Source: a virus. From it: a DNA stretch of 31,114 nucleotides. How positions within the stretch are numbered: position 1 is the stretch's first letter; the number at the start of each line of letters is the position of its first letter. Under the pieces are notes generated by a model. That model saw only the letters and a program-made list of their open reading frames with translations. It had not been told where the DNA came from and did not search any database. Location: UHGV virus genome UHGV-2113044, one strand, 5' to 3'. The position numbers and the translations under genes are program-made. This document shows positions 5,650 to 10,281 of the stretch, piece by piece.

Positions 5650-6066
5650 TTATACCTCTGAATCAATATCAACCTGGTGGCGGGCAATAGTTTCAACCAT
5701 GTACCGGATGTGTTCTGCCATGCGCTCCTGAAACTCAACATCGTCATCGAACGCACGGGTAATGGCTTTTTTGCTGGCCCCGTGGCGTTGCAAATGATCG
5801 ATGCATAGCGATTCAAACAGGTGCTGGGGCAGGCCTTTTTCCATGTCGTCTGCCAGTTCTGCCTCTTTCTCTTCACGGGCGATCTGCTGGTAGTGACGCG
5901 TCCAGCTCTGAGCCTCAAGACGATCCTGAATGTAATAAGCGTTCATGGCTGAACTCCTGAAATAGCTGTGAAAATATCGCCCGCGAAATGCCGGGCTGAT
6001 TAGGAAAACAGGAAAGGGGGTTAGTGAATGCTTTTGCTTGATCTCAGTTTCAGTATTAATATCCAT
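5650..6066 (-). CDS. gam: Gam, RecBCD inhibitor
   Basis: 138-aa ORF matching lambda Gam ([36 protein letters not shown]...). Confidence 0.95.
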
Positions 6067-6164
6067 TTTTTATAAGCGTCGACGGCCTCACGAAACATCT
6101 TTTCATCGCCAATAAAAGTGGCGATAGTGAATTTAGTCTGGATAGCCATAAGTGTTTGATCCAT
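6021..6164 (-). CDS. kil: Kil, host-killing / FtsZ-inhibiting protein
   Basis: 47-aa reading frame [47 protein letters not shown] inside the 89-aa ORF; overlaps the gam start as in lambda. Confidence 0.85.
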
Positions 6165-6297
6165 TTTTTGGGACTCCTGGCTGATTAAGTATGTCGATAA
6201 GGCGTTTCCATCCGTCACGTAATTTACGGGTGATTCGTTCAAGTAAAGATTCGGAAGGGCAGCCAGCAACAGGCCACCCTGCAATGGCATATTGCAT
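6133..6297 (-). CDS. cIII: cIII, FtsH inhibitor that stabilises CII
   Basis: 54-aa frame [54 protein letters not shown] matches lambda CIII. Confidence 0.9.
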   Translation of the reverse strand: MQYAIAGWPVAGCPSESLLERITRKLRDGWKRLIDILNQPGVPKNGSNTYGYPD

Positions 6298-8362: not shown

Positions 8363-8431
8363 ACAAGAAAGATTGTATGTTGTAAACAAGAGATATTGTA
8401 AAAAAGGGGCATGAAAAACAAACTCCATTGT
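8363..8431 (-). promoter_or_regulatory. OL operator cluster / pL region, 434-type 14-bp sites (ACAAGAAAGATTGT 8363..8376, ACAAGAGATATTGT 8386..8399, ACAAACTCCATTGT 8418..8431)
   Basis: Three ACAA-N6-TTGT sites matching the 434 operator consensus, upstream of N on the leftward strand. Confidence 0.7.
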
Positions 8432-8481: not shown

Positions 8482-9837
<1,356 letters not shown>

Positions 9838-9877: not shown

Positions 9878-9956
9878 ATCAAATTAAACCACACCTATGG
9901 TGTATGCATTTATTTGCATACATTCAATCAATTGTTATCTAAGGAAATACTTACAT

Positions 9957-10249
9957 ATGGTTCGTGCAAACAAACGCAACGAGGCTCTACGAATCGAGAG
10001 TGCGTTGCTTAACAAAATCGCAATGCTTGGAACTGAGAAGACAGCGGAAGCTGTGGGCGTTGATAAGTCGCAGATCAGCAGGTGGAAGAGGACTGGATTC
10101 CAAAGTTCTCAATGCTGCTTGCTGTTCTTGAATGGGGTGTCGTTGACGACGACATGGCTCGATTGGCACGACAAGTTGCTTCGATTCTCACCAATAAAAA
10201 ACGCCCGGCGGCAACCGAGCGTTCTGAACAAATCCAGATGGAATTCTGA
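9957..10249 (+). pseudogene. cII: cII transcriptional activator, frameshifted (apparent 1-bp deletion in a G-run near codon 45)
   Basis: Lambda CII N-terminus MVRANKRNEALRIESALLNKIAMLGTEKTAEAVGVDKSQISRWKR is in frame from the ATG at 9957; the CII C-terminus DWIPKFSMLLAVLEWGVVDDDMARLARQV...ERSEQIQMEF is only readable in another frame ending at the TGA at 10247..10249. The window reads aagAGGact where I recall lambda aagAGGGac. Confidence 0.75.
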
Positions 10250-10271
10250 GGTCATTACTGGATCTATCAAC
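10195..10271 (-). ncRNA. oop: oop antisense RNA (about 77 nt) with intrinsic terminator inside the cII 3' end
   Basis: Minus-strand hairpin CGCTCGGTTGCCGCCGGGCG followed by TTTTTT at about 10200..10226; position between the cII stop and the O start matches lambda oop. Coordinates are projected from lambda. Confidence 0.6.
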
Positions 10272-10281
10272 AGGAGTCATT

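Follow-up and report, generated by a model that had tools for sequence, protein, structure and literature searches.

The cII gene of the viral genome UHGV-2113044 is broken in its reading frame, which raises the question whether the gene has been inactivated by mutation or merely misread, and what its loss would mean for the element that carries it. The sequence analysed, referred to here as the window, is a stretch of 31,114 nucleotides. According to an earlier note, made from the letters alone, the lambda CII N-terminus reads in frame up to SRWKR and then leaves the lambda sequence, the C-terminus is undamaged in a different frame, and the gene is 1 nt short of lambda length, with AGGact in the place of lambda AGGGac. 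Alignment to lambda (NC_001416), phage 434 (OL657226) and lambda imm434 (OM418626) bears out these points, including the lambda motif. A single missing G is the sole indel in cII: at the deletion site the references have GAAGAGGGAC (in 434, GAAGAGGGAT, which ends in T) and the window has GAAGAGGAC. Positions 10080-10099, read directly from the sequence, are aggtggaaga ggactggatt; after codon 45, AGG (10089-10091), the window continues with ACT and all three references with GAC. The shortened run lies within the segment 10081-10096 in which the note had placed the lesion. The features of the damaged gene are as follows.

10090-10091, plus strand: GG run (GGG in the references) at the site of the 1-nt deletion, located by alignment; cII nt 134-136, ~lambda 38493-38495.
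9957-10322, plus strand: frameshifted cII frame from ATG 9957, with 45 native codons (M1-R45, including the helix-turn-helix) followed by 76 aberrant ones.
10094-10249, plus strand: displaced cII codons 47-97 and stop, undamaged but in the other frame; part of ORF 10082-10249.

The frame opening at ATG 9957 translates as MVRANKRNEALRIESALLNKIAMLGTEKTAEAVGVDKSQISRWKR, continues for 76 out-of-frame residues and ends at the stop codon 10320-10322, 38 nt beyond the start of O (10282). The displaced ORF 10082-10249 contains ...DWIPKFSMLLAVLEWGVVDDDMARLARQVASILTNKKRPAATERSEQIQMEF. The Pfam profile Phage_CII (PF05269) is divided in the same manner: its positions 1-46 of 91 match in ORF 9957-10322 and positions 45-91 in ORF 10082-10249, and when the G is restored the cII sequence scores 163 bits over profile positions 1-91. 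The protein repaired in this way equals lambda CII (PDB 1XWR, 1ZPQ, 8IGR, 1ZS4) except for A75S. Instead of a single uninterrupted CII frame of ~97 codons, the window therefore holds a gene split by a 1-nt deletion at 10090-10091, that is, a pseudogene of the Phage_CII family and not a functional member.

As judged by synteny with the lambda and 434 annotations, the gene lies between cro/nutR and O, with the -35 repeat of pRE in its 5' end and oop at its 3' end. It is thus the same gene in the same place as lambda cII (NC_001416 38360-38653; PF05269; PDB 1XWR/1ZS4), with pRE repeat and oop overlap kept, but it lacks one G at nt 134-136 and only residues 1-45 of its product are native. The oop region has the 434 sequence but for two SNPs near the oop 5' end (window positions 10253 and 10263).

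9966-9979, minus strand: pRE -35 / CII binding repeat TTGC-N6-TTGC, unchanged; reverse complement of gcaaacaaacgcaa, positioned by homology to the 434 annotation.
10196-10282, minus strand: region of the oop antisense RNA, which overlaps the 3' end of cII; coordinates taken over from the 434 record.

Judged by its sequence, the element around this locus is a lambdoid prophage of E. coli with 434-type immunity, located at the lambda attachment site next to ybhC. This placement follows from the left end of the window: starting at base 1, its sequence corresponds to the ybhC-int junction of E. coli Br_167_kylling, and it represents the left junction only. To the left of the immunity region lie N, cIII, kil, gam, bet, exo, xis and int, and to the right of cII follow O, P, ren, the nin genes, Q, two tRNAs, the lysis genes and a non-lambda head and contractile-tail module. 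The genes int, xis, the red genes, cI and cro are still open, and N, P, Q and the lysis genes look open as well. Over 3.6 kb the window is ~98% identical to phage 434, and it shares with 434 and lambda imm434 the cI gene (3 amino acid differences), the cro gene (identical), hex, OR1, OR3 and the gene order; an intact hex-like gene follows cI. It differs from both in a central A>G change in OR2, in a longer C run between the pRM -10 element and cI, in its broken cII and O genes and in its late genes, which are non-lambda-like (E217/DUF2213-type head and contractile-tail genes). A laboratory construct such as a lambda imm434 vector with amber mutations was considered and rejected: the late genes are non-lambda and the element is a natural mosaic with relatives in E. 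coli.

8883-9515, minus strand: 434-type cI repressor, intact; 3 amino acid differences from phage 434, identical to that of E. coli 09A19CPO009.
9573-9586, no strand assigned: 434-type OR2 with a central change at 9580, ACAAGATACATTGT to ACAAGATGCATTGT (A>G).
9622-9837, plus strand: 434-type cro, intact; protein identical to that of phage 434.
6252-6310, minus strand: Lambda_thermo (cIII thermoregulator) ahead of an intact cIII, from Rfam.
15931-16005: tRNA-Asn(GTT) downstream of Q, from Rfam.
16011-16086: tRNA-Thr(TGT) downstream of Q, from Rfam.

The Rfam scan returned nothing beyond the cIII thermoregulator and the two tRNAs. An apparent fusion of cIII and kil (an 89-aa ORF at 6021-6290) was discarded, as there is no indel relative to the relatives and the ORF is merely a kil frame that stays open upstream. 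The C run at 9535-9542, between the pRM -10 element and the cI start, comprises eight residues in the window and in 09A19CPO009, seven in MEI1A-0323 and five in phage 434; this tract of the pRM leader region thus varies in length.

The neighbouring O gene is also broken. A 7-bp deletion (AAAAGAA) removes one copy of a tandem 7-mer (window 10727-10747) in the AT-rich region of the origin, at ~lambda 39141-39147, and thereby both frameshifts O and shortens this region.

10282-10806, plus strand: O N-terminal fragment, comprising the origin-binding domain and a 23-aa out-of-frame tail; 7-bp deletion after 10733.
10803-11174, plus strand: O C-terminal fragment of 123 codons; its GTG start overlaps the preceding TGA (GTGA).

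The O deletion is found well outside this lineage. Of the 1330 records with the O segment, ~14 have it, which amounts to about 1% for complete E. coli genomes, and many prophages whose cII is intact and whose immunity is of another type carry it too. Defective lambdoid prophages of E. coli such as those of FDAARGOS_946, O55:H7 DEC5A and several O157:H7 strains share it with the window, and their O is called 'frameshifted' in RefSeq; unlike the window, these prophages have other immunity types and an intact cII. The tandem 7-mer looks like a mutation-prone site. A related contig with 434 immunity (L027) carries the O deletion next to an intact cII, and none of the sequences compared had the cII deletion without the one in O. 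This distribution would fit an O deletion that preceded the cII deletion, the order being unproven as the tandem 7-mer makes recurrence likely.

Two further lesions affect the late region.

22800-24020, plus strand: DUF2213 head gene (406 codons) with a premature TAG; CAG>TAG at 23823-23825 (Q342*), CAG in all relatives.
29764-30984, minus strand: IS30 of 1221 bp, with its transposase at 29771-30922, inserted behind the tail assembly chaperone gene.

The truncated DUF2213 product occurs in 18 public contigs. To the right of IS30, up to position 31114, IS3-family DNA stands in place of the remaining tail module, that is, no prophage sequence follows. A prophage of E. coli EPSSH018 whose early region is different has IS30 at this junction too, which suggests an IS30 hot spot or an exchange of the tail module. 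Together, the cII frameshift, the 7-bp deletion in O, the stop codon in the head gene and the IS30 in the tail module make up several independent inactivating lesions in essential genes of the phage, as is typical of a defective prophage.

We consider it very probable that an inherited -1 frameshift (GGG to GG) knocks out cII of a decaying 434-immunity lambdoid prophage of E. coli. CII serves the establishment of lysogeny by an infecting phage and nothing else; once a prophage is resident, it is kept by cI expressed from pRM. The CII tetramer activates pRE, pI and paQ, and its C-terminal helix assembles the tetramer. The shifted product would retain the N-terminal helix-turn-helix (residues 1-45) but lose the C-terminal tetramerization helix and the tail. 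Since the C-terminal half is missing, it should be unable to activate pRE, pI and paQ, as judged from the established structure and function of CII. The prophage can almost certainly make no progeny, because O and the origin are broken, the head gene carries a stop codon and IS30 sits in the tail module. Without an infectious cycle cII would no longer be under selection, so that the loss of one G by slippage in a short run could drift to fixation and subsequently travel with the host lineage. The cII lesion is, accordingly, an ordinary pseudogene in a decaying prophage, a kind of thing that is already known.

Alternatively, the loss of cII and O may have been selected rather than tolerated. 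The change at 9580 in OR2 may weaken repressor binding and thereby render pR leaky; leaky expression of CII, which is toxic when over-made, and O-dependent initiation from the trapped origin would then harm the host, so that null mutations of both genes would be favoured and the immunity module kept. Several observations agree with such a scenario. Between 8233 and 12358, the window and the closest intact relative, 09A19CPO009, differ at only eight positions, and three of these are the changes in OR2, cII and O. Wherever a deletion-bearing contig covers OR2 it has the changed base, which 434, lambda imm434 and the intact relatives all lack; cI, cro and hex stay intact. Moreover, Hayes and colleagues have described how cells in which a cryptic lambda prophage is induced escape replicative killing through the loss of O or P (PMC3349717). 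However, a count of three events gives no basis for statistics, a lowered affinity of the repressor for the changed OR2 is a supposition, and the O deletion recurs in unrelated prophages with intact cII and is probably just the product of a mutation-prone site. The stop codon in the head gene and the IS30 insertion, in turn, speak for general decay rather than a targeted loss. On balance we regard selected loss as unlikely.

An extension of this scenario would see the cII and O null alleles together with the OR2 change as a selected 'taming' of the pR operon, in which the host keeps the prophage for 434-type immunity and exclusion, and in which oop and the intact iterons could hinder incoming lambda-type replicons. 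Hayes and colleagues report that oop and iterons on multicopy plasmids inhibit lambda-type replication (PMC3349717), an effect that may not apply to a single copy, and we hold this extension to be rather improbable.

The earlier note had left two options, a genuine mutation of a defective prophage or an error in sequencing a homopolymer, and a change by 1 nt in the length of a G run is indeed the classic signature of such an error. In addition, no complete RefSeq E. coli genome has the deletion: a 61-nt query for this cII segment matched 824 complete E. coli genomes (825 records), of which 0 have the deletion and all have the extra G. A 26-nt pattern across the deletion likewise gave 0 matches in genome contigs and 0 in metagenome contigs and matched in viral contigs only. 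The identical deletion recurs, however, in no fewer than nine further public assemblies, made from different runs by different pipelines (Logan, an ENA k141 contig and JGI); most of them match the window at 100% throughout their overlap with it. These were found largely by an exact look-up of the shifted product in the 141-aa version that gene callers start at the upstream ATG 9897, which is present in eight contigs (SRR27381341, SRR7295726, SRR13318237, SRR7295725, SRR35865853 and SRR29490267 from Logan; ERZ27268167 from ENA). Exact look-up of the 121-aa product from ATG 9957 gave no match, the callers having used ATG 9897, and the 55-aa downstream ORF was not found as an exact sequence in the protein collection. 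The same deletion is also carried by Logan ERR1190758 and by the JGI metagenome 3300045988, with 100% identity (contigs L029 and JGI 3300045988). SRR7295725 and SRR7295726 are adjacent accessions and some runs may be related samples, so that the truly independent observations number fewer than nine.

The JGI contig (Ga0495776_161089, the same sequence as IMGVR_UViG_3300045988_066558) equals the window over 282-29818 except for the Q-gene cassette at 15602-15881, where it carries another allele of the Q antiterminator (172 aa) and a gene for a 170-aa HNH/AP2 endonuclease, ~700 bp that are absent from the window (L009/L021); either a cassette swap or the insertion of a mobile endonuclease gene accounts for the difference. 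On account of its different Q cassette the JGI contig is a separate sequence and not a copy of the window, and yet it shares both the stop codon in the head gene and the IS30 junction, which indicates that the lesions were inherited together. The same set of lesions is common to many contigs, which, along with the left junction, would be compatible with vertical inheritance in a host chromosome. A homopolymer error cannot make the substitution, the 7-bp deletion and the IS insertion that these contigs have in common.

The quality of the assembly points in the same direction. When ~25 kb of the window were aligned to three close E. coli relatives, no frame-breaking indels were detected in the genes annotated in these relatives besides the missing G in cII, the 7-bp deletion in O and a possible frameshift in a DUF4752 gene; the remaining indels are intergenic or compensated. 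Hence, the assembly is not indel-noisy. Longer homopolymers in coding sequence elsewhere are undisturbed, with the A run of the DUF4752 gene as a possible exception, whereas the run in cII is only three nucleotides long. That a 3-nt run is miscalled identically by several pipelines is not credible, and we therefore take the cII deletion as real. Of the two options offered in the earlier note, the genuine mutation gains support from the allele in other assemblies and from the accompanying lesions; the sequencing or assembly error, which would leave the real gene intact, appears very improbable and, as far as the compared sequences tell, is effectively excluded in favour of an inherited mutation.

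As to the DUF4752 gene (1767-2044), it has 1 nt fewer in an A run (deletion after 1975) than in Br_167_kylling, the one relative compared, and a 68-codon ORF compared to 92 codons; this difference may represent a further frameshift. A gap in the alignment of the NinI phosphatase gene was rejected as a frameshift, since it marks a mosaic junction and the gene is intact at 223 aa. Length differences relative to the relatives were also noted in two intergenic places, namely in an A run near 8399-8401 and, after the major capsid gene, as an extra G at 25503 in a GC-rich hairpin (gccccctggcGggggcc).

The least probable reading, which we consider close to negligible, is that the frameshift is compensated by programmed -1 ribosomal frameshifting, by transcriptional slippage or by assembly of the two halves, so that functional CII is still made: the downstream half is perfectly conserved and starts in an ORF with a GTG at 10082, and the site offers a purine-rich, Shine-Dalgarno-like GGAAGAGG and a rare AGG codon, but there is neither an X XXY YYZ slippery heptamer in TGGAAGAGGACTGG (10083-10096) nor a homopolymer long enough for transcriptional slippage, no ribosome-binding site is evident ahead of GTG 10082, and the two-frame arrangement is not conserved, being absent from the 824 E. 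coli genomes mentioned above and forming, as the shifted cII product, a cluster of one among ~15 billion proteins. The conservation of the downstream half reflects the youth of the mutation. Over 9940-11190, the nearest relative, E. coli 09A19CPO009, shows zero substitutions against the window and differs from it by the 1-nt and the 7-nt deletion alone, and both the cII and the O deletion must therefore be recent.

With the inherited frameshift as the preferred reading, annotation should record a cII pseudogene within a defective prophage, and the missing G should not be put back as if it were a sequencing error. Beyond annotation, its importance is small. Nevertheless, the combination of OR2 9580G, the cII deletion, the 7-bp deletion in O, the TAG at 23823 and the IS30 junction at 29764 provides a precise marker for tracking this prophage lineage in metagenomes, and exact-product look-ups across public assemblies can decide between real mutation and homopolymer error without raw reads.

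The lesion has a counterpart in the laboratory cII null mutants obtained with the lambda cII selection assay, in which +/-1 slippage in a G run likewise destroys the function of cII. In one such collection, 425 of the 656 cII mutants fall in the 6G repeat at nt 179-184 (bioRxiv 10.1101/2025.08.29.673000). The earlier note had spoken of a frameshift in a G-run, which holds inasmuch as a run loses one G; the run in question is only GGG, though, at nt 134-136, and is distinct from the lambda 6G hotspot, which reads GGGGTG in the window as in 434 and aligns without a gap. Moreover, the laboratory mutants were selected on an FtsH-deficient lawn, whereas the mutation described here has become fixed in a natural prophage lineage.
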